DNA of 55,227 nucleotides from a virus (IMGVR_UViG_3300034073_001024:1-55227), one strand, 5' to 3'; positions 27,238-41,266 are shown, counted from the stretch's first letter. Numbers and translations are program-made. Notes: generated by a model from the letters alone, not told the origin.

Positions 27238-27370
27238 CGGTCAATTTCAGTAGTTGAAGGATGTGCGCGGCAAATGCCGCATGGGTCATTACTGCATGGG
27301 TGCCGGGAGGACGCCCGTAGGACGCCTCCCACCACTCTTTGAATGCATCTTCAAGAGCGGCTTGGTTCAT
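27212..27370 (-). CDS. Small hypothetical protein (52 aa); not in track
   Basis: TGATG-coupled to ssb; MNQAALEDAFKEWWEASYGRPPGTHAVMTHAAFAAHIL. Confidence 0.55.
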   Translation of the reverse strand: MNQAALEDAFKEWWEASYGRPPGTHAVMTHAAFAAHILQLLKLTDEQGLQPD

Positions 27371-27774
27371 CAGAAGGGGATGTCTTCGTCGGCAGGGGTA
27401 GCGGCTGCGCCACCACTAGCGGGCGGGCGCGCAGTTGACGGCGCAGAGTTATCAGATTTGCTGCCAAGCAGTTGCAATCGCTCAACTTTTACGACGGGCT
27501 TGCTGCGTTTTTCTCCAGTGTTTCGATCAGTCCATTGCTCAATCGTCATTCGACCAACCACGCCAATCAGCGCGCCTTTGCGCACATAGTCGGCGGCCAC
27601 CTGAGCTTGCTTGCCCCAGACCTCCAGGTTGAACCAGTCGGGGTCTTCGTCGCGATTACTAGTGGCTTTGTTTACCGCAATGGTGAGGTTGGCCACCATG
27701 CTTCCGGATTCGAAGTAGCGCACCTCGGGATCGCGGCCGGCACGGCCGACGAGGGTGATGCAGTTGATGCTCAT
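27370..27774 (-). CDS. ssb: Single-stranded DNA-binding protein (cyanobacterial type)
   Basis: LVGRAGRDPEVRYFESG...DWFNLEVWGKQAQVAADYVRKG; C-terminal DEDIPF. Confidence 0.95.
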   Translation of the reverse strand: MSINCITLVGRAGRDPEVRYFESGSMVANLTIAVNKATSNRDEDPDWFNLEVWGKQAQVAADYVRKGALIGVVGRMTIEQWTDRNTGEKRSKPVVKVERLQLLGSKSDNSAPSTARPPASGGAAATPADEDIPF

Positions 27775-27778
27775 CAGT

Positions 27779-27991
27779 TCAAGGATTCAGTGGAATGATG
27801 CCGTGCGTCTGCTCAAAAGCAAGCACAGCGGATAGTGCATACCGCACACGCTTTTCACCAGCTGGTGTTGCAATGCGCGGTAGCTCATAATGCGGAGGAC
27901 CGTTCCCCCGCGAACGCTGGGATTTGATCGTGGATGGCTTGAGGCCCCAGCGCGCTGCAAGCTGTTCGGTGGTGAGATACGGTTCAGTCAT
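27779..27991 (-). CDS. Excisionase/AlpA-like HTH protein
   Basis: YLTTEQLAARWGLKPSTI...R.RG.GP...VRY. Confidence 0.75.
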   Translation of the reverse strand: MTEPYLTTEQLAARWGLKPSTIKSQRSRGNGPPHYELPRIATPAGEKRVRYALSAVLAFEQTHGIIPLNP

Positions 27992-28778
27992 CAGCAAATG
28001 GATCCTCCTCCGGCACTTCAGGATGCAGTGTTGCTTCGCGTTCCATCGCAAGCGTGCTCAGCTCGTCATATTGCTCAGGGCTGAGCTGCGACTGCCGCGC
28101 CCGCATCCGTTCGTTCACTTCCGCCAGCTTCTCCAGTGTGTCCGCCTTGGCGATAGCAGCCTTGCCGGCTTGGAACAGCTTGGCATCACCGGCCGGTTGG
28201 GCGGGCAATGCAGCGGGTGCAGGTGGCTGAGTGGTGACAGTGACGGGTTCTACCGTCTCGGATTGCTCCATCTCGTCGGTGGTGTAAACACCGCTGAGAT
28301 CAGCAGGGAACGCCTTACGTAGCGCCAATGCCTCGGAGCATTTGGCGATCATTGCGGCACCCATCTTGTTCCACAAGCCTTGACCGGCGTTGTAGTCAGC
28401 AAACCGCGCCACACCAACGAACGGGCGTGATGCACCACGGCGGTAGATGATGGTCTTGGCAGCTGCAGGTGGCTTGGAATCAAGCCATACATCACGCCAT
28501 TCGCCATCAGCGCCGCACCAGAATGTTTCGGAGCCATCAAGCTGGCCGGTGCGTTCAGCGATGCTGCGCAGGCCGTCGATGCCGGCTTGGATGGTCATCT
28601 TGCCGCCGTTGCCGCCGCGCTTGATGGCATAGATCTGTTTCGAGAACGGATCCAGCCCAGTGCGTTGGCACGCATAGGCAAACAGTCGCAGTTCATCCTG
28701 ACTGCAGCCCGGCGCAATGGTGCTGCTGATCAGTTGCGTTTGTTCTGGTGTCCAGTGGGTTAAAGCGGAGGAGGTCAT
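27984..28778 (-). CDS. bet: Single-strand annealing protein (Bet/RecT family)
   Basis: ELRLF...CQRTGLDPFSKQIY, IDGLRSIAERTG, MIAKCSEALALRKAFP...GVYTTDEM. Confidence 0.9.
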   Translation of the reverse strand: MTSSALTHWTPEQTQLISSTIAPGCSQDELRLFAYACQRTGLDPFSKQIYAIKRGGNGGKMTIQAGIDGLRSIAERTGQLDGSETFWCGADGEWRDVWLDSKPPAAAKTIIYRRGASRPFVGVARFADYNAGQGLWNKMGAAMIAKCSEALALRKAFPADLSGVYTTDEMEQSETVEPVTVTTQPPAPAALPAQPAGDAKLFQAGKAAIAKADTLEKLAEVNERMRARQSQLSPEQYDELSTLAMEREATLHPEVPEEDPFADD

Positions 28779-29573
28779 TTAGAAATCATCAGAGGTGAGA
28801 ACAGTGGAATTAGGGTTGAGCGCCCACTTCGGCAGGCTCAGCGTTTGCACGTCATCGCCATAGCCTGGCCACTCATTTGTGGCGCGGCAATCGGCGATCA
28901 CGCGCATATCACGCTGCCGCAGTTCATTGCCAAGCTGCAGCGCTTCGGCGTCAAGTTCATACACCGCAACCGGATGCGGGTATGCCTTCTCAACCGCAAT
29001 GAAAAAGAACCGCTCAGCGCCAAGGCCGCTCAGGTAGTGGGACGCCTGCACATGATAGCGGAAGGTTGCCACCGATTTGGCGAAGCCACGCGGTGATGCG
29101 TCGGTGGTGGTTTTGAGATCCACCACGGCGCTGCCATTGAGCCAGTCCGGCCGGCACTTGCAGCGCAGGCCGGTATCAAGATCATCCCACCAGAAGGACT
29201 GCTCAGCTTGCCCGTGGCGCAGCAGTTCCGCTGCTGCTTGGTGGCTGCGTACAGCGCCGGCCATTGCCAGCGCCAGCTCCATGTCGCTGCCGGTGACAGC
29301 TTCAATGCCAGCAGCAGCCATCTCGGCGGCTTGCTCCTTGCCGGCCTTGGTGTTACGCGGTGCGCAGATGCCATAGCGCTTGCTCAACTCATCGGGCTCC
29401 AGCACGGCGCAATGCACCAGTGAGCCCAGCCTCATCACAGCAGTCGGCTCCGGCCGCTGCCGCTGTGGATCCAGGAAGCGGCTCCAGTAGTGGTATGGGC
29501 TCTGCGCGACGGCGTGGAGGTGGCTAGCGCTGATCGCCGGATCAGCGTGATACTGCTCGTTGGTGATGGTCAT
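28779..29573 (-). CDS. RecE/ExoVIII-like PD-(D/E)XK exonuclease (DUF3799)
   Basis: YHA..AISAS.L, LGSLVH..VLEP, CKCRPDW...VDLKTT, YHVQ..HY. Confidence 0.88.
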   Translation of the reverse strand: MTITNEQYHADPAISASHLHAVAQSPYHYWSRFLDPQRQRPEPTAVMRLGSLVHCAVLEPDELSKRYGICAPRNTKAGKEQAAEMAAAGIEAVTGSDMELALAMAGAVRSHQAAAELLRHGQAEQSFWWDDLDTGLRCKCRPDWLNGSAVVDLKTTTDASPRGFAKSVATFRYHVQASHYLSGLGAERFFFIAVEKAYPHPVAVYELDAEALQLGNELRQRDMRVIADCRATNEWPGYGDDVQTLSLPKWALNPNSTVLTSDDF

Positions 29574-29776
29574 TCTTTCGGGCTCCATTCGTCGCACCAG
29601 TCAGTTGAGGCAACACTGGGCCAGTGGCTGCGATCCTCTCCAGTGGGTTGAGGTGGATGACAGTGGCACTCGTGGCGAGAAATTTCTCTTGCGAAATATG
29701 ATTGCTCAAAAGACTTGCGCAGCACGTGGTATCGACAGTTGCCGCACTGCTGTTCGTCAAGCGGGGGGTAGGTCAT
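29570..29776 (-). CDS. Small 4-Cys protein (HiPIP-like pattern)
   Basis: CGNCRY...ECHCHPP...WPSV...DWCDEW. Confidence 0.6.
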   Translation of the reverse strand: MTYPPLDEQQCGNCRYHVLRKSFEQSYFAREISRHECHCHPPQPTGEDRSHWPSVASTDWCDEWSPKE

Positions 29777-29930: not shown

Positions 29931-30106
29931 CGGTGATGCAGCGTCGTCTGTGGCCCGAAGCACTGCTCCAGCTGCGGGAACGCCTCCAGCAGCTTGCGGC
30001 GGTTATCGGGATCAGCCACCAGGCCAGCCTCTGCCAGCTTGGCCATGAAGCCACCGCCGTGGCGGATGGCGGTTTGGAGCGTTTGGAAGGTTTCGTTAGG
30101 GGTCAT
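29927..30106 (-). CDS. Small hypothetical protein (59 aa); not in track
   Basis: ATGA-coupled; RHGGGFMAKLAEAGLVADPDNRRKLLEAFP. Confidence 0.65.
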   Translation of the reverse strand: MTPNETFQTLQTAIRHGGGFMAKLAEAGLVADPDNRRKLLEAFPQLEQCFGPQTTLHHR

Positions 30107-30231
30107 TTCCGCACCACCTGCTGCGTGCCGCTATGGGTGGGCTTGTGGTGTGCGCCGGAATCGACGCCGATCATGGCGAATACTGCCGCTGCAATCAGCA
30201 GGCAGATCGCATTGTTGATGCGGTTGAGCAT
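30103..30231 (-). CDS. Small membrane peptide (42 aa)
   Basis: MLNRINNAICLLIAAAVFAMIGVDSG...; GGAG SD-like sequence just upstream. Confidence 0.55.
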   Translation of the reverse strand: MLNRINNAICLLIAAAVFAMIGVDSGAHHKPTHSGTQQVVRK

Positions 30232-30252
30232 GGCTCCGTGGTTGGGATTACT

Positions 30253-30284
30253 GCCGGCATTTGGTGCGGCTGCCGGTGGGCCGC
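30253..30284 (-). repeat. Intergenic pseudoknot repeat, copy A
   Basis: Minus strand GCGGC CC ACCGGCA GCCGC ACCAAA TGCCGGC. Confidence 0.75.
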
Positions 30285-30289
30285 GTGGA

Positions 30290-30595
30290 TCACGCCAGGC
30301 GTGCAGCCAGTGCCACCAGCTGTGCCTTCACAGCCTTACGCGGTGCGCTTGCCATAGCGCGCAGCTCCTTGCACGTGAGCTGTTCCAGCTCGCTGGCCAG
30401 ATCAAACAGCGGATGGACAGCAGGCGCCGGCATCTTCGGGCGTGGTGCCAGCACAGCAGTCACGTCATCATTCAGGCGGTGCAGCTGCTCGCCGCACCAG
30501 TAGCCAGCGGCATAGACCGCAGCGATGACAGCAGCAACCTGGCGGGCATAGCGCTCGATGTACGGCGCCCAGTCGGTGGTGATAACAGTGGTCAT
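30290..30595 (-). CDS. Hypothetical protein with C-terminal Rho-N/HEH-like motif
   Basis: LEQLTCKELRAMA...KAQLV; first gene after the promoter. Confidence 0.6.
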   Translation of the reverse strand: MTTVITTDWAPYIERYARQVAAVIAAVYAAGYWCGEQLHRLNDDVTAVLAPRPKMPAPAVHPLFDLASELEQLTCKELRAMASAPRKAVKAQLVALAARLA

Positions 30596-30633
30596 GGTTC
30601 CTTGCCGGGGTGAGGGATGGCCGGCTTGCGTTG

Positions 30634-30662
30634 ATGGTAGCACCCTAAGCGGCGGTGTGCAA
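30634..30662 (-). promoter_or_regulatory. sigma70-like early promoter
   Basis: TTGCAC-N17-TACCAT. Confidence 0.6.
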
Positions 30663-30665
30663 CCT

Positions 30666-31010
30666 CTAGTAGGAGATGAACACCCGAGCAATCCCGTCAA
30701 GCGGAACACCCAGGCGGTGAGCAGCGCCAGCGCTGAGATCCAGCGAGTTGCAATCGCAGCGGTCCAATACCGGCACCGTGAGCACACGCCCTTGGTGGCT
30801 GACGCGCACCGGCGTGCCGCAGGGGAGGTACCGATGCGCTGCGGATACGCCCCAGTGCTGGTATGTCTGGCCGCAATAGGTGGTGCGGCCGTGGTACCAG
30901 CTGTCGTACACCGTGGCCGTCACGTGCCGCCCGTGCGCGTGCACCGGCAGCGGCAGTAGCAGCATTGCAGCCAGCATTCGGCGGATCAGACCGCGTGGGT
31001 TTGTAGTCAT
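30666..31010 (-). CDS. RlpA-like (DPBB) lytic transglycosylase with signal peptide
   Basis: ATVY..WYHGRTTYCG..Y...SAAHRYLPCGT.VRV...V.VLDR...LDLSAGAAHRLG. Confidence 0.85.
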   Translation of the reverse strand: MTTNPRGLIRRMLAAMLLLPLPVHAHGRHVTATVYDSWYHGRTTYCGQTYQHWGVSAAHRYLPCGTPVRVSHQGRVLTVPVLDRCDCNSLDLSAGAAHRLGVPLDGIARVFISY

Positions 31011-31021
31011 GAGTTCAGTGC

Positions 31022-31108
31022 CTACTTGTGAGCAAAAGAAGCTACGGTCATGCCAAATAGGCAGCCGATGACAAAAGACATTCCGAGTAATTGAACAGGA
31101 ACCATCAT
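31022..31108 (-). CDS. 28-aa membrane peptide
   Basis: MMVPVQLLGMSFVIGCLFGMTVASFAHK*, coupled to the upstream stop. Confidence 0.4.
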   Translation of the reverse strand: MMVPVQLLGMSFVIGCLFGMTVASFAHK

Positions 31109-31302
31109 TCACGCCTCCTGCTGCGGTTTGGTGAGCAAGTGCCATAGCCATATCCATTGCCATATCCATCGCCATAGCCATCGCCATCGCCATCGCCATT
31201 GCCATCGCCATAGCCATCGCCATAGCCATTGCCATATCCATCGCCATAGCCATAGCCATAGCCATCGCCATAGCCATCGCCCACTGGCATCATGATATTC
31301 AT
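31105..31302 (-). CDS. Gly-Tyr/Asp/Asn repeat protein
   Basis: About 23 consecutive G-[YDN] dipeptides encoded by GGC-NAT hexamers. Confidence 0.7.
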   Translation of the reverse strand: MNIMMPVGDGYGDGYGYGYGDGYGNGYGDGYGDGNGDGDGDGYGDGYGNGYGYGTCSPNRSRRRE

Positions 31303-31604
31303 TTCAGCCCCCAGTTATCAGAGACTGGTACGCAAAAAATCTCTGCTCCGGCAGGCATGTCCACATCTGCAATAGGACGCAGATCTGCTTTCTCTGTTTC
31401 GATCATTTTGGCGAAACCAATAGATTCCCATTTGAACACATGTACGGCGCGGGATAGCTTGATTCGTCCATCTTCCCTGGTAACATCACCAGCAAAGATC
31501 CAGCCGCGATCAACTACCACTACGGCGCGGTTGCCTGTAGGAACGGAATCAGCGCGGACGTAAGTAACGCCGTTGATTTGAATTTGAGAGGCAGAAGTTC
31601 CCAT
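31299..31604 (-). CDS. Small beta-barrel protein (DUF6948/Sm-like)
   Basis: AVVVVDRGWIFAG...IKLSRAVHVFKW; ATGA-coupled to the Gly-repeat gene. Confidence 0.6.
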   Translation of the reverse strand: MGTSASQIQINGVTYVRADSVPTGNRAVVVVDRGWIFAGDVTREDGRIKLSRAVHVFKWESIGFAKMIETEKADLRPIADVDMPAGAEIFCVPVSDNWGLK

Positions 31605-31648
31605 GGTTAAGGAATGAAGAAATGCAAGGCATGGTTAGCGACTCAGCC

Positions 31649-31756
31649 TTAATCGTCGAAGCTGCGCCGTCTTTTATGGTCGGAGCGAGGCCAAGTAGCA
31701 GCGCACATCCACCAGCCGATTAAAAAGCCAGCTGCAAAAGACGGGGACCAATTCAT
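31649..31756 (-). CDS. 35-aa membrane peptide
   Basis: MNWSPSFAAGFLIGWWMCAATWPRSDHKRRRSFDD*. Confidence 0.4.
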   Translation of the reverse strand: MNWSPSFAAGFLIGWWMCAATWPRSDHKRRRSFDD

Positions 31757-31770
31757 TGCAGTGGTGAGGC

Positions 31771-31989
31771 TTATGGTCCAGTAATGCGGGGTGGTGGGAA
31801 TTGAGGCTTATCAGTGCGGCACCGAAACTTCCGCGGCGGTTCATCAAGCGGCCAATCAGCATCGCTGATGCTGGTCCGACGCGGCCGCAGAAACAGTGCA
31901 TCGAGGGTGCCCCGCAGCCACATGCCGAACGTGATCCCTAACGACAGGCCCCACGCCAGGCTGGCCGGGTCAAGGCGAGGGTCGCTCAT
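31771..31989 (-). CDS. Small membrane protein
   Basis: LAWGLSLGITFGMWL TM segment; Pro-rich tail. Confidence 0.5.
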   Translation of the reverse strand: MSDPRLDPASLAWGLSLGITFGMWLRGTLDALFLRPRRTSISDADWPLDEPPRKFRCRTDKPQFPPPRITGP

Positions 31990-32345
31990 CGCCCAGCCTC
32001 CCGCTCAAGCCCTCGGGCGCCCATTTCCCAGCCGCGCTCCCGCAACCACGCCGCCACCACGCGGATCACGGCGCGGGCTTCGGGTTTCCAGTTGATCGGT
32101 TCGTCGTCGTCGCCTGTAATTGCGTAAGCCACTCGCTCAACCAACGACCCATCGGGAACCATTTTGTTGACCTCCCCAATATGGTCAGATCGGTTGGTAT
32201 CACTGGCCTCCAGTGCCTCCACGCGGGAGCGGAGTTCCATGATGCAGCGAAAGGCGGAATTGCCATCCATTGCTTCAGTGTCAGCACGGGCCCAGTCGTA
32301 CCTGTCGGCACTCCACTGTCCAAGCGTTGCTTTGTGTTCAGTCAT
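31986..32345 (-). CDS. Hypothetical protein (paralogue 1)
   Basis: ELRSRVEALEA...SLVERVA...ARAVIRVVAAWL. Confidence 0.65.
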   Translation of the reverse strand: MTEHKATLGQWSADRYDWARADTEAMDGNSAFRCIMELRSRVEALEASDTNRSDHIGEVNKMVPDGSLVERVAYAITGDDDEPINWKPEARAVIRVVAAWLRERGWEMGARGLEREAGR

Positions 32346-32563
32346 TAGGGTTCCTCGCTACTGGGGTGGGTCATTTCCACGAGAGTGATGGTTTTGTGAC
32401 GACGAATAAATAGCTTGTGCGGCCCGTCCTCTGAGTAGGTGAGCAGATAGCGCACGCCTTCTTTGAGGACCGACTCAAGATCATTAGCGGATCCACCAGC
32501 GACCCATCTCTCAATGGAGTCTTGTAACTCCCATTCGTAATGTTCGTCGGAGAGCTGTGGATC
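32345..32563 (-). pseudogene. Start-less 72-codon reading frame (possible frameshifted gene)
   Basis: DPQLSDEHYEWELQD...AGGSANDLESVLKEGVRYLLTYSEDGPHKLFIRRH; its TAA overlaps the next ATG. Confidence 0.4.
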
Positions 32564-32984
32564 ATTGCTCCACCTCCATCCGCAACCGCGTTGCAGCGAC
32601 GTGCAGCTCTTGCTGGTCGAGCCAGTCGGCGATGGTGTGGATGACGGCGCGGGCTGGCTTATCTGCGGTCACATAGGGAGCAAAAGTCTCGGCGATGCCA
32701 TTAGCCACCTGCTCCACCAGCGAATCAGAAGATTCCGGCGCATTTTGAGTCAGGCCCAGGCGGGTCCGATTGCTGCTAGATAAGGCAATCGCTCGCAACG
32801 CAGCCTCCAGTGCCTCTACACGGGCGCGAAGTTCGAGGGCACAGTTCGCCGCGTTCGTCTCGTTCTTGCCGAGTTTTTCTACAGCAGCCCACACCTCGGG
32901 CTTGGCGCGGTGGCGCAGCCACTTATCCCGAAGGCCTTCGCATTGCTTATCGAAAGCATCAAAAGCGTGGTGTTGTTCAGTCAT
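32562..32984 (-). CDS. Hypothetical protein (paralogue 2)
   Basis: ELRARVEALEA...SLVEQVA...ARAVIHTIADWL. Confidence 0.65.
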   Translation of the reverse strand: MTEQHHAFDAFDKQCEGLRDKWLRHRAKPEVWAAVEKLGKNETNAANCALELRARVEALEAALRAIALSSSNRTRLGLTQNAPESSDSLVEQVANGIAETFAPYVTADKPARAVIHTIADWLDQQELHVAATRLRMEVEQ

Positions 32985-33181
32985 CTCATGCTCCGGTTAC
33001 GTTCTTCAACAGTCAGCGACGGGTGGCTGTCCCACGTGTCGGTGTCGGCGTCGTATTCAGTGACCACATCAATCACCGCAGCGATGGCGATGCGGCGCAT
33101 CTCAGGCAGTGCGTGCCCGTCAGTGGCGGCTTGCGCGTAGGCCTCGCTGTAGGCAGCGACGCACCGATTGAGCAGCGTCAT
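32981..33181 (-). CDS. Small hypothetical protein
   Basis: ATGA-coupled, MTLLNRCVAAY... Confidence 0.5.
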   Translation of the reverse strand: MTLLNRCVAAYSEAYAQAATDGHALPEMRRIAIAAVIDVVTEYDADTDTWDSHPSLTVEERNRSMR

Positions 33182-33363
33182 GCCGGCACTCCGATGCCTT
33201 CGCCATGCAAGCGGCGGCGGTACAGCTCGCGCAAGTTGGCGCATTCATGCGCCTCATCCATGCGGCCGAGCCGCTTGTAGTAATTCATGCGCACCGTCTC
33301 CCAGCGCCAGCCGCTGTAGAGCAGCTCAACGGGGACGGTTTCGGTTGGTTGTTTACGTGGCAT
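33178..33363 (-). CDS. Small hypothetical protein
   Basis: 61 aa; follows repeat copy B. Confidence 0.6.
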   Translation of the reverse strand: MPRKQPTETVPVELLYSGWRWETVRMNYYKRLGRMDEAHECANLRELYRRRLHGEGIGVPA

Positions 33364-33387
33364 GGGCTTGAGCGGTAGGGATTGGGT

Positions 33388-33417
33388 GCCGGATTGGGTG
33401 CGGCTCCGGCGGGCCGC
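33388..33417 (-). repeat. Intergenic pseudoknot repeat, copy B
   Basis: GCGGC CC GCCGGA GCCGC ACCCAA TCCGGC. Confidence 0.8.
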
Positions 33418-33463
33418 GGTGGGTCAGTCTTCCATTTCCTTCAGCTCATCCATCAGCTGTGAC

Positions 33464-33784
33464 TCACCCGCAATACTCCATCAGCGCCCAGCTGTAGCCG
33501 ATCTGTTCCAGCTGGGCGCTGTCGAGCACGACGCCCTCCGGTGGTCGGCTGTGCAGTCTCATGCACAGAAACTGATCACCCGGTTCCGGCTGCACGGTGA
33601 GCCGATTTGCGGCCACTGGGATCCTCAGCGCTGCGCTCATCGCGGCGGCGCTGGATTCGTGCCCCACGGCACTGGCGTGCTCACCAGCTGCAATCAGACG
33701 GGCGCGCTCAGCGCTAACGGTGCTCATCCTCCACTCGCCATCGGCGCCGTGAGGGATGACGGTTGTGCTCATCAAATAAAGCAT
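33464..33784 (-). CDS. STIV B116-like (DUF1874) protein
   Basis: MLYLMST...SAVGHESSA...NRLTV..EPGDQ...L..RPPEGVVL. Confidence 0.85.
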   Translation of the reverse strand: MLYLMSTTVIPHGADGEWRMSTVSAERARLIAAGEHASAVGHESSAAAMSAALRIPVAANRLTVQPEPGDQFLCMRLHSRPPEGVVLDSAQLEQIGYSWALMEYCG

Positions 33785-33805
33785 TGGTCTGTAGTGGTGA
33801 GGTGA

Positions 33806-34123
33806 TCAGTCGCGGTGGCCACCGATGCGGTTGCCGTCGCCAGCGCCGCCAGGGCGATACGGTGCTGGGTTGGCGGCCCGGTGAGCGCGCGCTTCCGCAA
33901 TGGCGGCACGCTCCTCTGGCGTGCGGCGCGCATCAAATGCAGCCACATGGGCGGCGTGCTCGGCTGCGCGCTGGGCGCGGATCTCGGGCGTGATCTGCCG
34001 GATGTAGGTGATCCGGCGTGGCGTCTTGGCGCCGCCCTGGGTGATGGCGATCACTGCGCCGTGATCGCGTGGTCCGCAATACTCCCAACCCCTCGGGAGT
34101 TTGCGGTTTGGGATGGACTTCAC
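33806..34123 (-). CDS. Hypothetical basic protein
   Basis: 105 aa, GTG start after repeat copy C. Confidence 0.55.
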   Translation of the reverse strand: MKSIPNRKLPRGWEYCGPRDHGAVIAITQGGAKTPRRITYIRQITPEIRAQRAAEHAAHVAAFDARRTPEERAAIAEARAHRAANPAPYRPGGAGDGNRIGGHRD

Positions 34124-34146
34124 GGTTGGTACGGCTTGGGTGAGGT

Positions 34147-34171
34147 GCCGGGATAGGCTCCCGGCGGGCCG
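34147..34171 (-). repeat. Intergenic pseudoknot repeat, copy C (compact)
   Basis: CGGC CC GCCGGGA GCC TA TCCCGGC. Confidence 0.7.
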
Positions 34172-34178
34172 TGGGGGA

Positions 34179-34352
34179 TCAGTCCTCTAGCAGGGACTGA
34201 TTAGCCCACCAGCAGGTTTTGAGGACCGCCTTGGCGCGCGCCTCTTCGGCTTCGCGCTCAAGTCGGTCCTCCTCCCTCCAGCGCTTTGCGCGAGCGATTT
34301 CCCACAGGTTGCGCTCGGCTTCGGTCTTGAAGCGTTTCTTGGTGCGGGGCAT
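34179..34352 (-). CDS. Small charged hypothetical protein
   Basis: MPRTKKRFKTEAERNLWEIAR...; first gene after the promoter. Confidence 0.55.
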   Translation of the reverse strand: MPRTKKRFKTEAERNLWEIARAKRWREEDRLEREAEEARAKAVLKTCWWANQSLLED

Positions 34353-34398
34353 GGTTCTCGGTTTGGGGTGAGGCGGCGACTGGTGCGCCGGTGAAAGA

Positions 34399-34426
34399 AT
34401 CATACACCATGCGCAACCCAGCGCAA
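34399..34426 (-). promoter_or_regulatory. sigma70-like early promoter
   Basis: TTGCGC-N16-TATGAT. Confidence 0.55.
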
Positions 34427-34726
34427 CCAATCACGCATCAGCGCCGATGCGTCTCGCCCGTTCACTTCAACATGGGCCAGCCAGCGGCCGAAGCTGTCTT
34501 GCTTGACGGTGGTGACGGCTAACGGTTGATCGGTCACCAATGCACGCAGCCGCTCCGTTGCTTCACGCCACAGCGGCTCACCGCGTTCCGGTGTATCCAG
34601 CTCCAGCAGTCGCAGCCGTTGGCGTGTCGTGAACCGGAAGCCGACGTCAATGATCACGTCGATCGTGTCACCGTCGATCACGCGGTCAAGCGTGACGTGC
34701 TCATACCGCCAGGATTTGCTCTGCAT
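34400..34726 (-). CDS. Thermonuclease (SNase-like)
   Basis: RVIDGDTIDV..DVGF...RLRL..LDTPE, QDSFGRWLA. Confidence 0.88.
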   Translation of the reverse strand: MQSKSWRYEHVTLDRVIDGDTIDVIIDVGFRFTTRQRLRLLELDTPERGEPLWREATERLRALVTDQPLAVTTVKQDSFGRWLAHVEVNGRDASALMRDWLRWVAHGV

Positions 34727-35045
34727 CTTCCACGCTCCTAGCCACACCAGCAATGCCACCAGCGGCTTGCACCGCTTCCATCCATTGTCGCTGTTCTGGG
34801 CGCAGGCGGCCGGTGGCGCTCTTGACTTCTATTGAGGTGAACACCGCCACCTGCTGGCCGATCATCTCGGGCGTGATGGTGATGGTGCGCCAGCCGATCA
34901 GGTCGCCGCTGCCTGGTTGTAAGCCATACCGCACCGGCACACCGCGTTGATCACGCAAGACGCCACAGTTATTCCTGTAGAGGCGGCAGTCACCGCGGCT
35001 GCACGCTACGCGGATGTGTTGCTGGATTGATTGTTCGCTGGGCAC
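34701..35045 (-). CDS. VRR-NUC nuclease
   Basis: EQSIQQHI, GSGDLIG, IEVKS..GRLRPEQRQW...GG.AGVARSVEDA. Confidence 0.88.
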   Translation of the reverse strand: MPSEQSIQQHIRVACSRGDCRLYRNNCGVLRDQRGVPVRYGLQPGSGDLIGWRTITITPEMIGQQVAVFTSIEVKSATGRLRPEQRQWMEAVQAAGGIAGVARSVEDAEQILAV

Positions 35046-35069
35046 TGCGGGGATGCGACTGGCGGCAGG

Positions 35070-35384
35070 CTACGCACTCCTCCGTTGCCAATTGGCAACC
35101 AAGTCAACCAGCTTGCCGTGTTTATCCGCCAAGTCGTCGTGCGCCGTTTCGAGTTGATCAATCCTGTCGCACAAGGAGATCACAAGATCCGACAGATCAT
35201 TGTGCTTGCTATGGATGTCTAGTCCGCCGGACTGTTGAGCCAGCCCGGCTTCAATCCATCCGCGCAACAGTGCGGCAACAGTGCGGCGTTCGGACTGAGC
35301 GTAGGCCCGAAGCTGTTCCAAGAGTTCAGACGGCAGCTCAAAGCTCAGCTGGCTGCCCTTGCGATTGCGAATTGATGCAGTCAT
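35070..35384 (-). CDS. Ribbon-helix-helix protein with coiled coil
   Basis: QLSFELPSELLEQLRAYAQSERRTVAALLRGWIE. Confidence 0.65.
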   Translation of the reverse strand: MTASIRNRKGSQLSFELPSELLEQLRAYAQSERRTVAALLRGWIEAGLAQQSGGLDIHSKHNDLSDLVISLCDRIDQLETAHDDLADKHGKLVDLVANWQRRSA

Positions 35385-36760
35385 CCAACTTGCCTCCGTT
35401 GTTGTTTGTGTTGACGTGCCGCGTAGACATGCTTCGCCCATGCGGTGGGGTTTTTGTAGCCGCGTTGGTGGCCGAGGGCGATCAGATCCTGGAGGCTCTG
35501 CGCGCTGCCTTGTTCGCGGCGCTGCTCACGGCGTTGCAACTCCACCAGCTCGCCATCAACCACCTTCAGCTCACGCGCCTCCTGCGGTGCAAACACATGC
35601 CCGCATTCGCGGCAGATCTGTGCAGTGCTGGCGCTAGTGGCGAAGCACTTGGGGCATACCTTCACGCTGGGTGCGGTTTCGCGGTCGCGTTTCTTGATGC
35701 CATCCAAGCTCCATTCACGCTCCTCTAGGTGGTGGCCAAGGCGAAGCGTATTGCCGACGTGATCGAGCACCACCGCAGCAGGCTTGCCCGGTGCTGGCCG
35801 CAGGCATCGGCCGATCATCTGCAGGTGCAGGCTGACGCTCTGCGTTGGCCGCAGCAGGATGCAGCCGCCGACGCTTGGCACGTCCACGCCTTCACCGATC
35901 AATGCGCAGCTGGTGAGCACCTTCAACCGGCCGGTTTCCAGCGCCTGCAGCAGATCGCGCCGCTGCTCGCCGGTCATGCTGCCGTCGATGCTGGCGGCTG
36001 GCACGCCTTGGCTGATAAACAGCTGCGCCACTGCTTCGGCATGGGCCACTGAGCAGCAGAACGCAATCGCCGTCCGCCCGCTCAGGTGTTTGCGGTAGTG
36101 GCTGCAGCAGTCGCCCATGATCGTCGTCACCCGCTGCTCCGCTTGCTTGGCATCGAAGTCGCCCATCCGCTTACGCAGCCCGGCAGCATCAAACCCAGGT
36201 GGTGCCAGCACACGGGCAGCCGCTAGGTAGCCGTTGTCCGTGAGCCATTTGGCAGTTGGCCCTTGCACCATCACCTCATACCACTCGCCGAGGCCGCGGC
36301 CGTCACCGCGAATTGGAGTCGCAGTAACGCCCATCAGCTTGGCGGCAGAGAAGTGGCTGATCACATTGGCCCATGTGCCCGCATTGCTGTGGTGGCACTC
36401 ATCAACCACCAGCAGCTGGAAGAAATCACGCGGCAGCTTGTGCAGCCTGCGGGCCAGTGTCTGCACGCTGGCAACCTGCACGGCATGGCTTAGGTCCATG
36501 CTTCGGCCGGCGGCGATGCGACCATGCCTGACGCACATACGCTGCAGGCTGCGGCTGGCTTGATCCAGCAGTTCCGCGCGATGTACCAAGATGCACACGC
36601 GGTTGCCTTTCTTGGCGGCTGATTGGGCAATGTGGCTGAAAATAACCGTCTTGCCGCCACCGGTGGGCAGCACGGCCAGAACGCTGCGCTTGCCCAGTTG
36701 GTACTGCCCGCGTATCTCTGTGACCAGCTGTTGCTGGTAGGGGCGGAGTTGAATAGACAT
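35381..36760 (-). CDS. SF2 (DExH, RadD/YejH-like) helicase with C-terminal Zn finger
   Basis: LRPYQ, PTGGGKT, DECHH, TATP, EGVDVP, QMIGRCLR, CPKC..CREC. Confidence 0.93.
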   Translation of the reverse strand: MSIQLRPYQQQLVTEIRGQYQLGKRSVLAVLPTGGGKTVIFSHIAQSAAKKGNRVCILVHRAELLDQASRSLQRMCVRHGRIAAGRSMDLSHAVQVASVQTLARRLHKLPRDFFQLLVVDECHHSNAGTWANVISHFSAAKLMGVTATPIRGDGRGLGEWYEVMVQGPTAKWLTDNGYLAAARVLAPPGFDAAGLRKRMGDFDAKQAEQRVTTIMGDCCSHYRKHLSGRTAIAFCCSVAHAEAVAQLFISQGVPAASIDGSMTGEQRRDLLQALETGRLKVLTSCALIGEGVDVPSVGGCILLRPTQSVSLHLQMIGRCLRPAPGKPAAVVLDHVGNTLRLGHHLEEREWSLDGIKKRDRETAPSVKVCPKCFATSASTAQICRECGHVFAPQEARELKVVDGELVELQRREQRREQGSAQSLQDLIALGHQRGYKNPTAWAKHVYAARQHKQQRRQVG

Positions 36761-37414
36761 CTACCAGGCTCGCTGCTTTTGCGTGGCAATGCGATCCATT
36801 GGCCATTGGCGGTCAATTCGATGTTTCATTGCCGAATAAGAAAGATTGAACTCTCTAGCCCAGTCCGCGATGCTCATTGTCATTCCGCGCCAAGTGATCA
36901 TGTGATTTCTGGTTGTGTTATTCATCTGCATCAGTGGCGTAACGATACGGCAATTCGACGGCGAATAATTACCATCAACATTGATTCGATCAAGTTGCAT
37001 TCCTTTTTGATAGCCAGCCGCCAAAGCCCATCGGTAGAAATTATGGCGACCTTCAATGTTTAGCCATTCATCGCAGACCTTGATGCCGCGTGCGCCGTAG
37101 CAGTACCATCTGTCACTTCGCGGATCGGTGCATCGCTTGATCATGTTTTGATAGCAGTCTTTAAGTGGCCGGCGAAGCTCAAGAGGGATGTATTTGTTTT
37201 CTTTGCGACCCTTATTGCAGTTGTTGATTGCAGCTTCAATAGAGCCACAGCCGCAACTTGCAACTGTTCCATTGCGCAGCAATGCTGTTCTGACTATGTT
37301 TTCGCCACCGCAATCGCATTTGCAGTACCAATGAGCGCCATTTTTGCTGTAAGCAAAGCGCTCAACAACAAGTCGTCCAAAGCGCTGCCCGGTCAGCTCG
37401 ATTCTTTGGCCCAT
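36761..37414 (-). CDS. Free-standing HNH-type homing endonuclease
   Basis: LTGQRFGRLVV, WYCKCDCG, SCGC, YGARGIKVCDEW, LDRINVDGNYSPSNCR. Confidence 0.85.
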   Translation of the reverse strand: MGQRIELTGQRFGRLVVERFAYSKNGAHWYCKCDCGGENIVRTALLRNGTVASCGCGSIEAAINNCNKGRKENKYIPLELRRPLKDCYQNMIKRCTDPRSDRWYCYGARGIKVCDEWLNIEGRHNFYRWALAAGYQKGMQLDRINVDGNYSPSNCRIVTPLMQMNNTTRNHMITWRGMTMSIADWAREFNLSYSAMKHRIDRQWPMDRIATQKQRAW

Positions 37415-37450
37415 ACAGCCTACGTTGCAGGATTGATGGATCCTAGCACA

Positions 37451-37528
37451 AGCCCGCGCGCCAGACGCATAGGCCTGGTGCAGATCAGTGAGTGCCTTCT
37501 GCTGGCGTGGTCGGAGTTGGATTGTCAT
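37451..37528 (-). pseudogene. Orphan helicase N-terminal stub (26 codons)
   Basis: MTIQLRPRQQKALTDLHQAYASGAR aligns with helicase start MSIQLRPYQQQLVTEIRGQYQLGKR. Confidence 0.65.
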
Positions 37529-38487
37529 ATCATCAGCTCCGCTTGCTCGGTGTCACCTTCGGCCACGGCGGAAGCCTCAAGGTTGCGCACCGCTTGGCGG
37601 TAGTAGCTGGGTTTCAGTTCAATGCCAACGCCGCGCCGGCCGGCTTGAACTGCGCCGTAAACCTCAGAGCCGACGCCCATAAACGGGGTGAGCACTGTCT
37701 CGCCCGGGTTGCTCCACATCACTACAGCGCGATCAATCACATCCAATTGCAGCGGGTGCACGTGCTTCTCGTCTTCGCCATCCTTGGCAGAGCGAAATGG
37801 AAGCACATTGTCGATCCTGATGTCATCCCACACGCTTGAGGCGTATTGGCGCCAAATCCACTGGCTGTACTGATTCTTCTTTTGATCGCCACTCATGCCG
37901 CGATAGGGCATCACATCAGCTGGAATGTTGCGCTCGCCGCTGTAATGCAGCAATCCGACATCATGAGTAACCGGCACAGGATTTTCGCCCTTGCGGCGGA
38001 ACATCAGCAAGTAATCAGCGTTTGCGATGCTGTTGCGCGTTGAGTCTTCGCAGAGAGTCTTATGGTGCAAACTCTTCATCATGGTTCGATTGCGCACCAT
38101 TAGCGGTTCTTTCCAGATCACGCGGCGGCCGCCGTAGGCAAACCCTCGGGCCTCATGCTCGCGAATGATGCGACCGGGTAAGTCAAACATCGAATCGCAG
38201 CCTGCATTGCTCAGTGGGATGTCCATGCAATGCACAGCTGAAATGCGGCCAGGCATTGTGATCCGCTTGATTTCATCAATGCAAAAACCGTAGTGATCAA
38301 AAAACTCGTCATAGTTAATGCAGTTCGACATATCGCGATCATCGCTGCTGTATTGATACAGGCCAGCAAACGGCGGTGAGTACACCGTGAGATGCACCGA
38401 CGCATCGCGCAGTTCCTTCATCACCTCGATGCAGTCGCCGTTGTAGATCGCGTAACGATCAGTCAGCAGTTGATCTTTTACAGCCAT
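37525..38487 (-). CDS. DNA methyltransferase, beta class (N4-C/N6-A)
   Basis: Motif IV YSPPF near the N-terminus; motif I VLTPFMGVGS near the C-terminus; GIELK. Confidence 0.9.
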   Translation of the reverse strand: MAVKDQLLTDRYAIYNGDCIEVMKELRDASVHLTVYSPPFAGLYQYSSDDRDMSNCINYDEFFDHYGFCIDEIKRITMPGRISAVHCMDIPLSNAGCDSMFDLPGRIIREHEARGFAYGGRRVIWKEPLMVRNRTMMKSLHHKTLCEDSTRNSIANADYLLMFRRKGENPVPVTHDVGLLHYSGERNIPADVMPYRGMSGDQKKNQYSQWIWRQYASSVWDDIRIDNVLPFRSAKDGEDEKHVHPLQLDVIDRAVVMWSNPGETVLTPFMGVGSEVYGAVQAGRRGVGIELKPSYYRQAVRNLEASAVAEGDTEQAELMI

Positions 38488-39911
38488 TGGGGAACCTTGG
38501 TGTTGTTGGTGTAGAGATTGGTGCGATTGACTGTTGTGGCATCATTCATCTGAGCCACCAGCTGCTCAAACATTTGTGCGGCGCGGTCAGCCTTGGAGCG
38601 CATATTGGCCAAAACTCGCGCTTCGCCTTCGGTTGCAATTACATCAACCACAACAGGACGCTTCTGGCCAAATCGCCAGCAACGCCTCACGGATTGATAA
38701 TGCTGCTCATAGCTATGGCTAGCGAAAGTGACAACATGGGCGCAATGCTGCCAGTTAAGGCCCCATGCGCCAATCTTTGGCTTGATCACCAAAACACGCT
38801 GGCGGCCATCAGCAAAAGCGTCGTACAGCTCAATCTTTCGCGCATCCGGTGTTCGGCCGGCGATCTGAGCGGCGTCGGGAATCAGCTGCTCCAGTAGGTC
38901 ACCTTCTGCGTTGGTGTGGCACCAAATCACAGCCGGCTGGTCATGGTCAACCAGCTGGGCGGCAAACTCGCAGCGTTCGTTGATCGTGCGCTTTCGTTCT
39001 TCGCGTTCCTCGCCAAGGCCGAATGCTGGAATCGAGAACAGCATCCCTTCTGGCGGTGGCGCAGCGATCACGTGATCACGTTCGGTCAAGGCAGGCAGAA
39101 TGAACCGCTCATCACTGAAGCCAAGGTCTGACGGATACCGGCACGCTCTTGCCCAGCTAGCAACCCAGCGCCAGAAGTGCTCGCGCGCGTGATGTTTCAG
39201 TCGCCACTGGCCAATGGTTTGCGATACGCGAAAGGCAAGCTTTTTGTAATAGTTTGCATTTGCCTCAAGCATTGCCTCGGCTTGCTGTTGCAATCGCTCC
39301 TCACGTTTCTGTCCCTTGTCGTCAAGCTGCGCAAAAAATCGCCGCAGCATATCGCTATAGGACAGCTCGCCAAGCGCCTCAGATGAGTTGCCTAGCTCGG
39401 TGTAGTCATTCGGCGCCGCTGTTGCTGTCGCCAGCAAGCGATACGGCATCTTGGACATAAACCGAGTGATCGCTTTCCGCGTTGATCCATTGAATGACTT
39501 AAGGATGCTGCTCTCATCGCAAACGACAGCGCCGAAATCATCTGCATTGAACAGATGCAACTTGTCGTAATTAGTAACCACAATCCGGCCCGGCACGCTG
39601 CCGTCGCTGCTGCGGTGGCATTCGATGCCGAACTTTTCGCCTTCGCGGATGGTTTGCGCTGCTACAGCCAATGGCGTCAAGATCAGCACTGGCCGATCGG
39701 TGTAGCGAGCCACGTTTTCGGCCCAGGTGAGCTGCATGGCCGACTTGCCGAGTCCGCAATCAGCGAAGATCGCCGCGCGGCCTTTGCGTACCGCCCACTC
39801 CACCAGCGATCGCTGAAAATCAAACAGCTGGTCAGGCATGAACACCGGCTCAAAGCCATGCTCAGCGCCGACCTGTAGCTTTCGATCTAGGAACTCCTCG
39901 TAGCTCGCCAT
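38478..39911 (-). CDS. SNF2-like helicase
   Basis: FDFQ, ADCGLGKS, DESSILK, TATAAPND, GLNWQH, QSVRRCWRFGQ. Confidence 0.9.
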   Translation of the reverse strand: MASYEEFLDRKLQVGAEHGFEPVFMPDQLFDFQRSLVEWAVRKGRAAIFADCGLGKSAMQLTWAENVARYTDRPVLILTPLAVAAQTIREGEKFGIECHRSSDGSVPGRIVVTNYDKLHLFNADDFGAVVCDESSILKSFNGSTRKAITRFMSKMPYRLLATATAAPNDYTELGNSSEALGELSYSDMLRRFFAQLDDKGQKREERLQQQAEAMLEANANYYKKLAFRVSQTIGQWRLKHHAREHFWRWVASWARACRYPSDLGFSDERFILPALTERDHVIAAPPPEGMLFSIPAFGLGEEREERKRTINERCEFAAQLVDHDQPAVIWCHTNAEGDLLEQLIPDAAQIAGRTPDARKIELYDAFADGRQRVLVIKPKIGAWGLNWQHCAHVVTFASHSYEQHYQSVRRCWRFGQKRPVVVDVIATEGEARVLANMRSKADRAAQMFEQLVAQMNDATTVNRTNLYTNNTKVPQWL

Positions 39912-40183
39912 CAAACCTCCGGGCAGCGCTTACGGGCAGCATCCATCGCAGCAGCGCCATCAATGCGGACGGTTTCACCGTGGCGCGTGACGGTTGCAGT
40001 CGGTGATGGCAGCTCCGAATCCCAGGCGTATTCGACGGCCTGGCGGATGGAATCACGCAGGCTGGTGCCTTGCAGCCGCAGCAGGCAGAACCGTGCCGCA
40101 TACAGCTCAGGGTCAATCGCACCGGCATGAGCGGCCGGTAGCAGCAGTGCCGCCGCAGCGGCAGCGAGGGTGAATCGTCTCAT
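39911..40183 (-). CDS. Secreted hypothetical protein
   Basis: Signal peptide MRRFTLAAAAAALLLPAAHA; two Cys. Confidence 0.65.
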   Translation of the reverse strand: MRRFTLAAAAAALLLPAAHAGAIDPELYAARFCLLRLQGTSLRDSIRQAVEYAWDSELPSPTATVTRHGETVRIDGAAAMDAARKRCPEV

Positions 40184-40203
40184 TGGTTGAGCAGTTGGGA
40201 TTA

Positions 40204-40234
40204 GCCGGGATTGGGTGCGGCTCCGGCGGGCCGC
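40204..40234 (-). repeat. Intergenic pseudoknot repeat, copy D
   Basis: GCGGC CC GCCGGA GCCGC ACCCAA TCCCGGC; about 32 nt identical to copy B. Confidence 0.8.
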
Positions 40235-40242
40235 GGTGGAGG

Positions 40243-40608
40243 TCAATCCACCAGTTCGGTGATGATGCCCAGTCGCTTGGCATTGCGCCAGATCTCGCGG
40301 GCTTCTTCCACGTTGTCGATCGCGCGGTAGTAGCTGTCGCGGCCCCACTCCTTGTATTGACCGCTGATTTTCCAAGTCCGGCGGCGCAGCTCAGCGCCGC
40401 TAAACCGGCCGTTGTTGACCCATACGGTCAGCACGACATCTGAGCAGTTGCCGATGAAGGCGTTCAGATCACGCAGGTTGCCGCTGGCGCCACAGGCGAA
40501 GCAGTCGCCGTTCTGCACGTGGCTGTAATGCGGCAGTTTGCCGGTGCCATTGCAAAACGGGCAAGTGACCGTTGCGTTATGGAGCTTGCGGGGTGCGGTG
40601 GCGGTCAT
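40243..40608 (-). CDS. DnaJ-type Zn-finger protein
   Basis: CPFCNGTG...GDCFACGASG. Confidence 0.65.
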   Translation of the reverse strand: MTATAPRKLHNATVTCPFCNGTGKLPHYSHVQNGDCFACGASGNLRDLNAFIGNCSDVVLTVWVNNGRFSGAELRRRTWKISGQYKEWGRDSYYRAIDNVEEAREIWRNAKRLGIITELVD

Positions 40609-41104: not shown

Positions 41105-41266
41105 ATGGAGCTAGCGCACCCGTTATCGGTTCAGTTCACACCAGAGCAGCTGGCATGGCTGGACAGTCGCCGCGTCGCCGGCTTGTCGCGTAGTGCCGTC
41201 TTGCGCCTTGTAGTCGAGGAGGCCATGCGCCACGAGCAAGCGGCGACGCGGAGCGTCAAGCGATGA
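41105..41266 (+). CDS. CopG-like ribbon-helix-helix regulator (53 aa); not in track
   Basis: PLSVQFTPEQLAWLDSRRVAGLSRSAVLRLVVEEAM; ATGA-coupled to primase. Confidence 0.7.
   Translation: MELAHPLSVQFTPEQLAWLDSRRVAGLSRSAVLRLVVEEAMRHEQAATRSVKR

Follow-up and report, generated by a model that had tools for sequence, protein, structure and literature searches.

An uncatalogued, covarying pseudoknot family lies between early-operon genes of many uncultivated phages

The virus record IMGVR_UViG_3300034073_001024 is a complete 55,227-bp genome with direct terminal repeats, and this whole stretch of DNA is called the window here. Its early, replication and recombination genes form a long minus-strand block that runs from ~41.1 kb down to 23.6 kb and also holds many small open reading frames (ORFs). 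Four intergenic spacers contain copies (A to D) of a short module, all co-oriented on the minus strand and with none elsewhere in the 55-kb genome. We find that this module belongs to an uncatalogued, strongly covarying pseudoknot family situated between early-operon genes of many uncultivated phages. Its sequence predicts a compact H-type pseudoknot with a first stem (S1) of 3-5 bp, a 2-nt, C-first loop (L1), a second stem (S2) of 6-7 bp that is stacked directly on S1 with zero nucleotides between them, and a second loop (L3) of 2-6 nt.

All four copies share a common layout, which runs from a stop codon through a C-rich flank of 5-8 nt, the 5′ arm of S1, the dinucleotide CC, the 5′ arm of S2, the 3′ arm of S1, a loop, the 3′ arm of S2 and a CA-rich leader of 20-24 nt to the next start codon. 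An 11-nt core, CGGCCCRCCGG, occurs exactly four times in the genome, always on the minus strand (forward 0, reverse 4), and a backwards-read control gave 0/0. When up to one mismatch was allowed, 12 matches were found compared with 3.03 ± 1.64 in shuffled sequences, and 0 of 100 shuffles reached 12. An earlier reading made from the DNA alone (the sequence-only reading) had proposed these four spacers, with their coordinates, shared layout and strand, and that proposal is borne out. The copies and their parts are as follows.

30273-30283, 33406-33416, 34161-34171 and 40223-40233, minus strand: core CGGCCCRCCGG
40184..40245, minus strand: copy D, long form (52.5 bits, E 4e-7 by covariance model)
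40245-40228, minus strand: stop TGA 40245-40243; flank 40242-40235; S1 5′ arm GCGGC 40234-40230; L1 CC 40229-40228
40227-40184, minus strand: S2 5′ arm 40227-40222; S1 3′ arm GCCGC 40221-40217; L3 ACCCAA 40216-40211; S2 3′ arm 40210-40204; leader 40203-40184
40183-40181, minus strand: start ATG of the gene after copy D (39911-40183), a 90-aa protein with a signal-peptide-like N-terminus
34124..34181, minus strand: copy C, short form (64.9 bits with the short-form model)
34181-34166, minus strand: stop TGA 34181-34179; flank 34178-34173; S1 5′ arm (AC)GGC 34172-34168; L1 CC 34167-34166
34165-34124, minus strand: S2 5′ arm GCCGGGA 34165-34159; S1 3′ arm GCC 34158-34156; L3 TA 34155-34154; S2 3′ arm TCCCGGC 34153-34147; leader 34146-34124
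34123-34121, minus strand: start GTG of the gene after copy C
33364..33426, minus strand: copy B, long form (67.3 bits by covariance model)
33426-33411, minus strand: stop TGA 33426-33424; flank 33423-33418; S1 5′ arm 33417-33413; L1 33412-33411
33410-33364, minus strand: S2 5′ arm GCCGGA 33410-33405; S1 3′ arm 33404-33400; L3 33399-33394; S2 3′ arm TCCGGC 33393-33388; leader 33387-33364
33363-33361, minus strand: start ATG of the gene after copy B
30232..30292, minus strand: copy A, long form (46.8 bits by covariance model)
30292-30278, minus strand: stop TGA 30292-30290; flank 30289-30285; S1 5′ arm 30284-30280; L1 30279-30278
30277-30232, minus strand: S2 5′ arm (A)CCGGCA 30277-30271; S1 3′ arm 30270-30266; L3 ACCAAA 30265-30260; S2 3′ arm TGCCGG(C) 30259-30253; leader 30252-30232
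30231-30229, minus strand: start ATG of the gene after copy A (30103-30231), a 42-aa protein with a hydrophobic stretch

The spacers of copies A, B, C and D measure 58, 60, 55 and 59 nt, which places the stop and the next start in frame in B alone, as had been stated, and the leaders of A, B and D contain AATCCC. Other details needed amendment. The same S1, GCGGC/GCCGC, had been assigned to all copies; it is present in A, B and D but not in C, where S1 is shortened to GGC/GCC with a 2-nt loop. Compensatory variation of S2 among the copies is real, but S2 of copy D is imperfect (GCCGGA versus TCCCGGC, that is, 5 bp or a bulge) and S2 of copy A has an A.C at its base. The orphan gene tail described before copy B does exist as a stretch of 18 open codons closing with a TGA at the canonical 6-nt distance, but no homologue of it was found among the loci compared. 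This TGA does not terminate the real upstream gene (33464-33784; phrog_5063 match over residues 2-103 of 106), which ends 40 nt earlier. In the relatives L140, L142 and L171, a variant with CUGC/GCAG and GCCGAGA/UCUCGGC stands ahead of the same gene that follows copy B. A near-perfect hairpin of ~17 bp (33482-33521, minus strand) is contained in the 3′-terminal part of the phrog_5063 gene, 60-100 nt before copy B; it surfaced solely through a spurious microRNA-model match.

Homologues of the module were collected from viral contigs. The first pattern scan, which fixed S1 and the 5′ part of S2, returned at least 120 loci, and ~44 distinct matches among those listed carry the whole module, including the unconstrained 3′ arm of S2, with a start ~25 nt further on. 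A covariance model with S2 as its sole structure yielded 64 matches in 50 sources (the pattern-scan loci plus the window), and a second harvest, from 67 loci retrieved by way of a neighbouring helicase, a sample independent of the element sequence, gave 41 matches in 34 of them. Two main forms were recognized, a long one (as in copies A, B and D) and a short one (as in copy C). Among 84 distinct copies that were parsed, which come from loci L006-L206 and the window, S1 is fully paired in 81 and S2 in 76. The compensatory change of S2 is upheld in these homologues by many paired variants (GCUGGA/UCCAGC, GCCAGA/UCUGGC, GCCGAGA/UCUCGGC, GCCGGCA/UGCCGGC, GCCGGGG/CCCCGGC, GCAGGGA/UCCCUGC and GCGGGGA/UCCCCGC), by inserted pairs that are matched on both arms and by G.U intermediates such as UCUGGC. 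On the opposite strand these intermediates would read A.C, which identifies the sense strand as the one that folds.

S1 varies less in the long form, in which GCGGC/GCCGC is replaced by ACGGC/GCCGU in three copies and one G.U and one A.C intermediate occur; the third S1 pair of the short form (n = 15) is GC in 10, AU in 2, CG in 2 and other in 1. We therefore scanned viral contigs with a pattern that fixed just L1 and S2 of the short form and left S1 free, which again returned at least 120 loci. All three S1 pairs are present in 90 of the 111 distinct matches among those listed, as GGC/GCC (60), CGC/GCG (18), AGC/GCU (5) and CCG/CGG (4), together with wobble variants. All 104 rows that could be trimmed to one length, chance matches included, went into a gapless alignment. 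Its three S1 pairs are formed in 94, 91 and 98 rows, and pair 6-20 is GC in 61, CG in 24, AU in 6, GU in 3 and other in 10. Double-change cells number 54, compared with 20.9 ± 3.4 in shuffles (0 of 500 as high), and the S1 covariation score is 0.127, with any slid register reaching at most 0.054. A possible fourth S1 pair, outside the core, is unpaired in 72 of the 104 rows. Covariation of S1 in homologues, on which the sequence-only reading had staked its proposal, is thus present.

The order of an H-type pseudoknot (S1 5′, S2 5′, S1 3′, S2 3′) is followed, and both helices are backed by compensatory change. In the main forms L1 has 2 nt over 6-7 bp and L3 has 2, 3 or 6 nt over 3, 4 or 5 bp, lengths that would leave room for both helices at once. 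The H-type fold predicts that the loop across S1 lengthens with S1, and this trend fits: with exceptions, the loop grows from 2 nt at 3 bp to 3 nt at 4 bp and 6 nt at 5 bp. In a third form, the loop that crosses S1 holds an additional, conserved hairpin of 4 bp (17 nt in all), and S2 differs compensatorily among the five copies of this form:

L071:1803-1860, third form
L022:5314-5371, third form
L185:9980-10037, third form
L213:401-460, third form
L233:3937-3994, third form

Together, these data show a conserved, strand-specific, two-helix covarying element with a fixed placement and a wide distribution in viral contigs. We infer that it acts as RNA instead of single-stranded DNA and that both helices form simultaneously. 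A site at the DNA level, such as a promoter for a phage sigma factor, a repressor stoperator or an attC-like single-strand recombination site, could account for the fixed orientation relative to genes, the high sequence conservation and the arrays between cassettes, and the phage does encode a sigma-70 family protein (23573-24475). Yet the compensatory changes preserve pairing rather than sequence in two interleaved helices, their G.U-type intermediates would be A.C on the other strand, a -35/-10 layout is absent inside the element and an integrase-like partner was not seen in the annotated parts of the window, which makes a DNA site very improbable.

In the first harvest, S1 follows the upstream stop at a distance of 4-9 nt in 76 of 84 copies, and the next start comes 20-28 nt after S2 in 75 of 84. 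The wider family has the same architecture: its stops precede a 3-nt S1 by 5-10 nt, and most of its starts follow S2 at 17-34 nt. Between S2 and the start, the leaders are of unrelated sequence and poor in G (A 30, C 46, G 10 and T 14% over 84 copies), and a Shine-Dalgarno-like motif is found in the leaders of 24 of 39 low-GC contigs versus 11 of 46 high-GC contigs. A few low-GC copies (L285, L227, L243 and L296) sit 10-22 nt behind a good sigma-70-type promoter instead of a gene end. Elements also occur in arrays: one complete genome of 66 kb has five copies within 1.5 kb, each ahead of a small ORF, and locus L310 has seven model matches.

Of 83 proteins encoded upstream of the element, 42 have a C-terminal alanine, often within Ala-Ala, which partly reflects the shared ancestry of one gene family, and GCCGCC codons there can pair with the 5′ arm of S1. 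An alternative hairpin formed by the last upstream codons and this arm was possible in 16 of 84 copies, compared with 5.8 expected and a maximum of 13 in 500 shuffles; it was rejected as a general feature because most cases come from homologous upstream genes ending in Ala-Ala.

A pseudoknot this close behind a stop codon might stimulate recoding, and its distance from the stop does match the classical 5-9-nt spacer. All three kinds of stop codon occur upstream of the 84 copies, however, no slippery heptamer was seen in the listed flanks, and the three frame relations between the stop and the next start are represented 28 : 31 : 24 among 83 copies (28 in frame), which is the chance third. In addition, the near-identical copies B and D read in different frames. 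Read-through fusion is thereby removed, in keeping with the earlier judgement that it was unlikely. A ligand-binding riboswitch, suggested by a fold class to which several small riboswitches belong, is disfavoured by the functional incoherence of the downstream genes (56 PHROG families among 65 proteins of the wider family) and by zero matches to riboswitch families in Rfam. Recoding stimulator and riboswitch together are, to us, the least probable explanation of all; read-through, riboswitch and promoter readings are each disfavoured.

The element was found in at least about 130 other uncultivated phage sequences, on viral contigs with 40-69% GC and often in several copies per locus. The idea of an early-operon element of cyanophages therefore holds only in part: the genes after the element are mostly of early or replication type, but the element is not confined to cyanophage-like contigs, given this range of base composition and many Shine-Dalgarno leaders. 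A helicase of the low-GC contigs matched phages of many hosts, with identities no higher than 42%. Among 50,697 records of named phages, Synechococcus phage S-H1 alone carries the element, in two copies, one of them the syntenic counterpart of copy D; S-H1, whose stated host is Synechococcus sp. WH 7803, is also the sole named phage similar to the window. The whole short-form core was found in none of these records, which gave 15 partial matches with coverage of at most 74%. In cells, one record has the long form when one genome is taken for each of 185,579 bacterial and archaeal species. It is a 3.6-kb contig binned with a Cyanobium metagenome-assembled genome and holds both copies of that genome; the same contig accounts for the single one of 401 cyanobacterial genomes in which the short-form core was detected. 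This near-absence from cellular genomes argues for a phage element that was not borrowed from the host chromosomes searched.

No family in Rfam accounts for the element. Rfam 15 gave zero matches at gathering thresholds in the whole window, so the match to a known family that the sequence-only reading had named as fatal to novelty did not materialize. With E up to 10 on 33340-34200 and 40150-40270, no module had a sense-strand match, and the sole overlap was that of a eukaryotic long non-coding RNA model (E = 7.9) on the opposite strand of copy B. A 2023 survey (PMC10690425), which drew on this data source and dealt with objects of this type, predicted over 10,000 unnamed candidate structured RNAs in the intergenic regions of IMG/VR. 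The element may be among these candidates, although the passages of the survey do not describe it. Our literature search found no description of the element.

The host-independent distribution, conserved shape and position between cistrons would also suit a processing site, at which self-cutting or a universal nuclease (for example, RNase P recognizing a helix similar to a tRNA acceptor/T-arm) splits the mRNA. The stacked S1 and S2 amount to 10-12 bp, with an S2 of 6-7 bp that starts with G-C; after a cut, the downstream message would begin with S2 as a protective hairpin at its 5′ end. The Rfam searches gave zero ribozyme-family matches, even at E up to 10; a conserved CCA-like motif is absent from the 3′ flank in the 84-copy listing, in which a tRNA-like 3′ CCA after S2 was considered and dropped as not conserved; and 27-35 nt is small for a catalytic core. 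We regard processing as improbable.

Genes downstream of the element encode small proteins (first-harvest median, 66 aa), many of which have a hydrophobic N-terminus resembling a signal peptide or membrane helix. These hydrophobic N-termini are of at least seven apparently different types. In the wider family, the downstream proteins include helicases, Arc-like and other regulators, SSB, RecE-like and Cas4-like nucleases and NinB. In the window, the virion and lysis genes lie on the plus strand, opposite to the leftward block that contains the four copies.

3603-8483, plus strand: tape measure
11707-15003, plus strand: J-like tail protein
22008-23174, plus strand: endolysin
23573-24475, minus strand: sigma-70 family protein (300 aa; regions 1.2, 2 and 3, with region 4 weak), encoded at the far end of the leftward block
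24719-25225, minus strand: dCTP-deaminase-like protein
27370-27774, minus strand: SSB
27984-28778, minus strand: RecT
28779-29597, minus strand: PD-(D/E)XK/DUF3799 exonuclease (RecE-like)
30666-31277, minus strand: DPBB lytic-transglycosylase-like protein
34701-35045, minus strand: VRR-NUC
35381-36760, minus strand: helicase-like gene
37525-38487, minus strand: DNA methylase
38478-39914, minus strand: helicase-like gene
41263-43782, plus strand: primase-like gene
47424-49298, plus strand: terminase large subunit
49905-51431, plus strand: portal
51415-53979, plus strand: fused protease/major-head gene, a single 854-aa ORF with a protease-like region N-terminal to the major head protein

The largest non-coding gap of the leftward block, 335 nt without a convincing ORF between the helicase and VRR-NUC genes (35046-35380), is a candidate internal regulatory region. 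The window proteins that were scanned showed no phage RNA polymerase, and the sigma-70 family protein suggests that the phage probably redirects host RNA polymerase to its own promoters.

The strongest competitor to the reading that we favour below is a protein operator, in which an RNA-binding protein of phage or host would sit on the pseudoknot and control downstream translation, so that the marked early genes form one regulon. The order of pseudoknot, unstructured leader and start is that of the gene 32 operator, L1 and the junction-proximal pairs are conserved beyond the needs of pairing across contigs with 40-69% GC, the phage encodes an SSB (27370-27774), and in a few contigs the element precedes SSB-like genes. 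On the other side, the SSB gene of the window has no element upstream, the sequences of S1 and S2 vary freely while pairing is kept, and no protein family is common to more than 14 of the 84 element-bearing loci, which is weak evidence as the loci are fragments. An operator seems to us unlikely, if less so than the other rivals.

Translation through the nutR sites of phage lambda inactivates them, so an antitermination element would be expected in untranslated spacers. A cis-acting antitermination RNA of the put or nut kind, which binds RNA polymerase directly or through a factor so that early terminators are read through, would fit the lambda-like virion genes and long leftward early operon of the window, the position of the element just after stop codons and outside ribosome footprints, the low-GC copies that lie ~10-22 nt behind a sigma-70-like promoter (L285, L227, L243 and L296) and the hairpin that directly follows the element in L153 and L198. 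Against it, the 5-7 copies before successive small genes exceed the need, neither boxA/boxB nor the two-hairpin layout of put is present (by comparison with their consensus), the tight spacing to the next start is unexpected, and terminator-like sites are not enriched over 23-42 kb (17 versus 16.5 ± 3.9 in shuffles by consensus scan). We consider antitermination quite unlikely, about on a par with processing or slightly above it. The same scan found 6 promoter-like sites, compared with 7.9 ± 2.5 in shuffles, and none at any module; the claim that three copies follow the first gene behind each of three early promoters is thus not supported. The hairpins of L153 (11952-12050) and L198 (1858-1950) are GC-rich and accompany an A-run directly after the element; on the opposite strand they make a canonical intrinsic terminator, so that the element adjoins a transcript end there.

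Alignments to relatives of the window stop at 40245 (the 5′ edge of D), 33391 (inside B) and 30288 (the 5′ edge of A), and metagenome contigs diverge from it at 33391, 33418, 34147, 34176 and 30276. These breakpoints at or inside modules agree with the earlier suggestion of cassette swapping. A block made up of element A and its 42-aa gene (30102-30288/30295) is 93-95% identical to L171 and L049, and the shared DNA that adjoins it on its one aligned side is 78-83% identical to the same two loci. In one relative, the gene upstream of D and the 5′ part of an element are found at a different place. Because the element is the only long identical sequence between unrelated genes, it is a site where homologous exchange would join cassettes, and with RecT and a RecE-like exonuclease encoded by the phage, the 30-35-nt identical stretch is a plausible annealing site.

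Pairing with the ribosome was considered as a further function and abandoned. In the long form (A, B and D), the 3′ arm of S1 and the start of L3 include AGCCGCACC, a stretch of 9-10 nt with perfect complementarity to the 3′ strand of helix 45 (L210 16S rRNA 1463-1472), beside the anti-Shine-Dalgarno end of the 16S rRNA in the Cyanobium-group genomes sampled. In copy C, the leader includes AGCCGTACC; this sequence matches the 5′ strand of helix 45 exactly and, with one G.U, pairs with the stretch of rRNA that AGCCGCACC would bind. The idea was dropped because equally long rRNA matches occur elsewhere, the short form has no match and the strand is paired in ribosomes.

Overall, we tentatively favour, at a little less than an even chance, a conserved RNA element that acts in cis as a folded barrier or insulator and doubles as a cassette junction. 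The exact mechanism, a permanently folded barrier for the downstream cistron, is a possibility in which we place appreciably less trust than in the overall reading. The element would be transcribed within the leftward early and replication mRNAs. Its spacing is such that a terminating ribosome at the stop and an initiating 30S subunit at the start could both adjoin it while leaving the pseudoknot wound. Small pseudoknots with a 2-nt C-first loop, G-C-rich stems and direct stacking, such as those of luteoviruses and gene 32, are mechanically stable, and the single-stranded parts of the element have almost no G to compete with the stems. These stability features, the spacing and the G-poor single strands lead us to read the structure as selected for constant folding. 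At the 5′ edge of each downstream ribosome-binding region, the pseudoknot could then serve as a roadblock or insulator that limits attack or scanning of the downstream cistron by 5′-end-dependent RNases and shields the unstructured, G-poor leader from pairing with upstream RNA. Each small gene would thereby become an independent, portable expression unit, with homologous exchange (RecT and the RecE-like exonuclease) joining gene cassettes at the element as a secondary role.

A bolder version, in which a phage-specific, host-independent and hyper-stable mini-pseudoknot works with no phage protein in early operons of phages with many hosts and is also the crossover point for portable cassettes, strikes us as rather doubtful. 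Such a device might stop 5′-end-dependent RNases, modify RNA polymerase as put RNA does or direct a cut by a universal nuclease; in the first case, it would be a bacterial counterpart of the exonuclease-resistant RNAs of viruses.

Several observations weigh against a static barrier that also marks junctions. Other genes of the same phage have similar CA-rich leaders that lack both a Shine-Dalgarno motif and a pseudoknot, so the element is not needed for initiation as such and supplements the start site instead of replacing it. The conserved L1 and outer S2 pairs could equally suggest recognition by a factor. In L264, L232, L218:7431 and L049:3512, 4-6 nt of S1 could pair with a second loop of 1-2 nt; both full helices may then not coexist, so S1 would be partly open or the helices would alternate, and alternating helices in these copies would point to a switch instead of a static barrier. 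A few copies lack any S1 (L185:10244 and L050:4699). Nested folding z-scores of the four copies are unremarkable (-0.67, -0.09, -1.06 and -1.34) with a program that cannot score pseudoknots. In mosaic phages, breakpoints generally fall at gene boundaries, and those at the modules are therefore consistent with a junction role without being specific evidence or proof of it. Finally, two public sequencing runs, one of RNA (5% of words) and one of unrecorded kind, both in the form of assembled contigs, show relatives diverging at the modules, and contigs assembled from an RNA run cannot show RNA ends, strands or levels; for this reason, RNA contigs that end 17-19 nt into the genes after C and D were set aside as candidate RNA ends.

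The finding is stronger than the sequence-only reading could tell. If our reading is true, few unnamed cis-RNA signals of tailed phages would be as widespread as the element, which has at least 120 loci in each of two scans. It would offer a handle on how phages maintain the expression or stability of individual cistrons in long early transcripts, also in Shine-Dalgarno-poor hosts; a sequence mark for early-gene cassettes and their exchange, as arrays precede small, dark-matter early genes; and a compact, portable insulator part for synthetic operons. A cultured phage-host pair with two copies, Synechococcus phage S-H1 on WH 7803, provides a testable system. Even if the function proved to be ordinary mRNA stabilization, the family would merit an Rfam entry.

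Among known systems, the PeSL cassettes of T4-type phages combine a promoter with a terminator-like stem-loop, are repeated between small variable early genes and have been proposed to permit modular shuffling by homologous recombination (passages in PMC2839356 and PMC4122927). As far as those passages describe PeSLs, the likeness lies in a short conserved intergenic motif that is repeated between variable small early genes and lies at replacement borders between relatives; our element likewise flanks variable small ORFs and marks such borders. PeSLs include an early sigma-70 promoter, whereas the -35/-10 layout is absent from the modules, which also lack a U-tract, form a two-helix covarying pseudoknot and occur on contigs of very different base composition.

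The recoding pseudoknots, namely the luteovirus-type frameshifting pseudoknots (such as that of beet western yellows virus) and the read-through pseudoknot of murine leukaemia virus, resemble the element in a GC-rich S1 of ~5 bp, a 2-nt C-first loop, an A/C-rich second loop and a position 5-9 nt after the decoded site. The element differs in having no slippery site, an S2 of 6-7 bp instead of 3 and random downstream frames (28 : 31 : 24 of 83), and it follows true gene ends and precedes independent starts. Pseudoknot riboswitches (preQ1, SAM-II/V, guanidine-III and others) are set apart by the zero Rfam matches and incoherent downstream genes of the element. The put sites of HK022 and the nut sites of lambda are structured RNAs in untranslated spacers of early operons. 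In a lambda-like phage, the element is likewise a structured RNA in untranslated early spacers, directly after the upstream stop, but it consists of neither boxA/boxB nor two hairpins, is present in far more copies and is tightly coupled to the next start.

In T-even phages, a pseudoknot at the 5′ edge of the unstructured leader of gene 32 mRNA nucleates the single-strand-binding protein. The element shares with this autoregulatory pseudoknot, which is mentioned in PMC10690425, a compact H-type fold, a very short first loop, stacked stems and a location at the 5′ edge of an unstructured leader to an early-gene start. The SSB gene of the window (27370-27774) has no element upstream, so that the placement typical of gene 32 is not reproduced, and whereas the gene 32 pseudoknot is tied to the SSB gene and its own product, the element described here precedes dozens of unrelated genes, with several copies in a genome.

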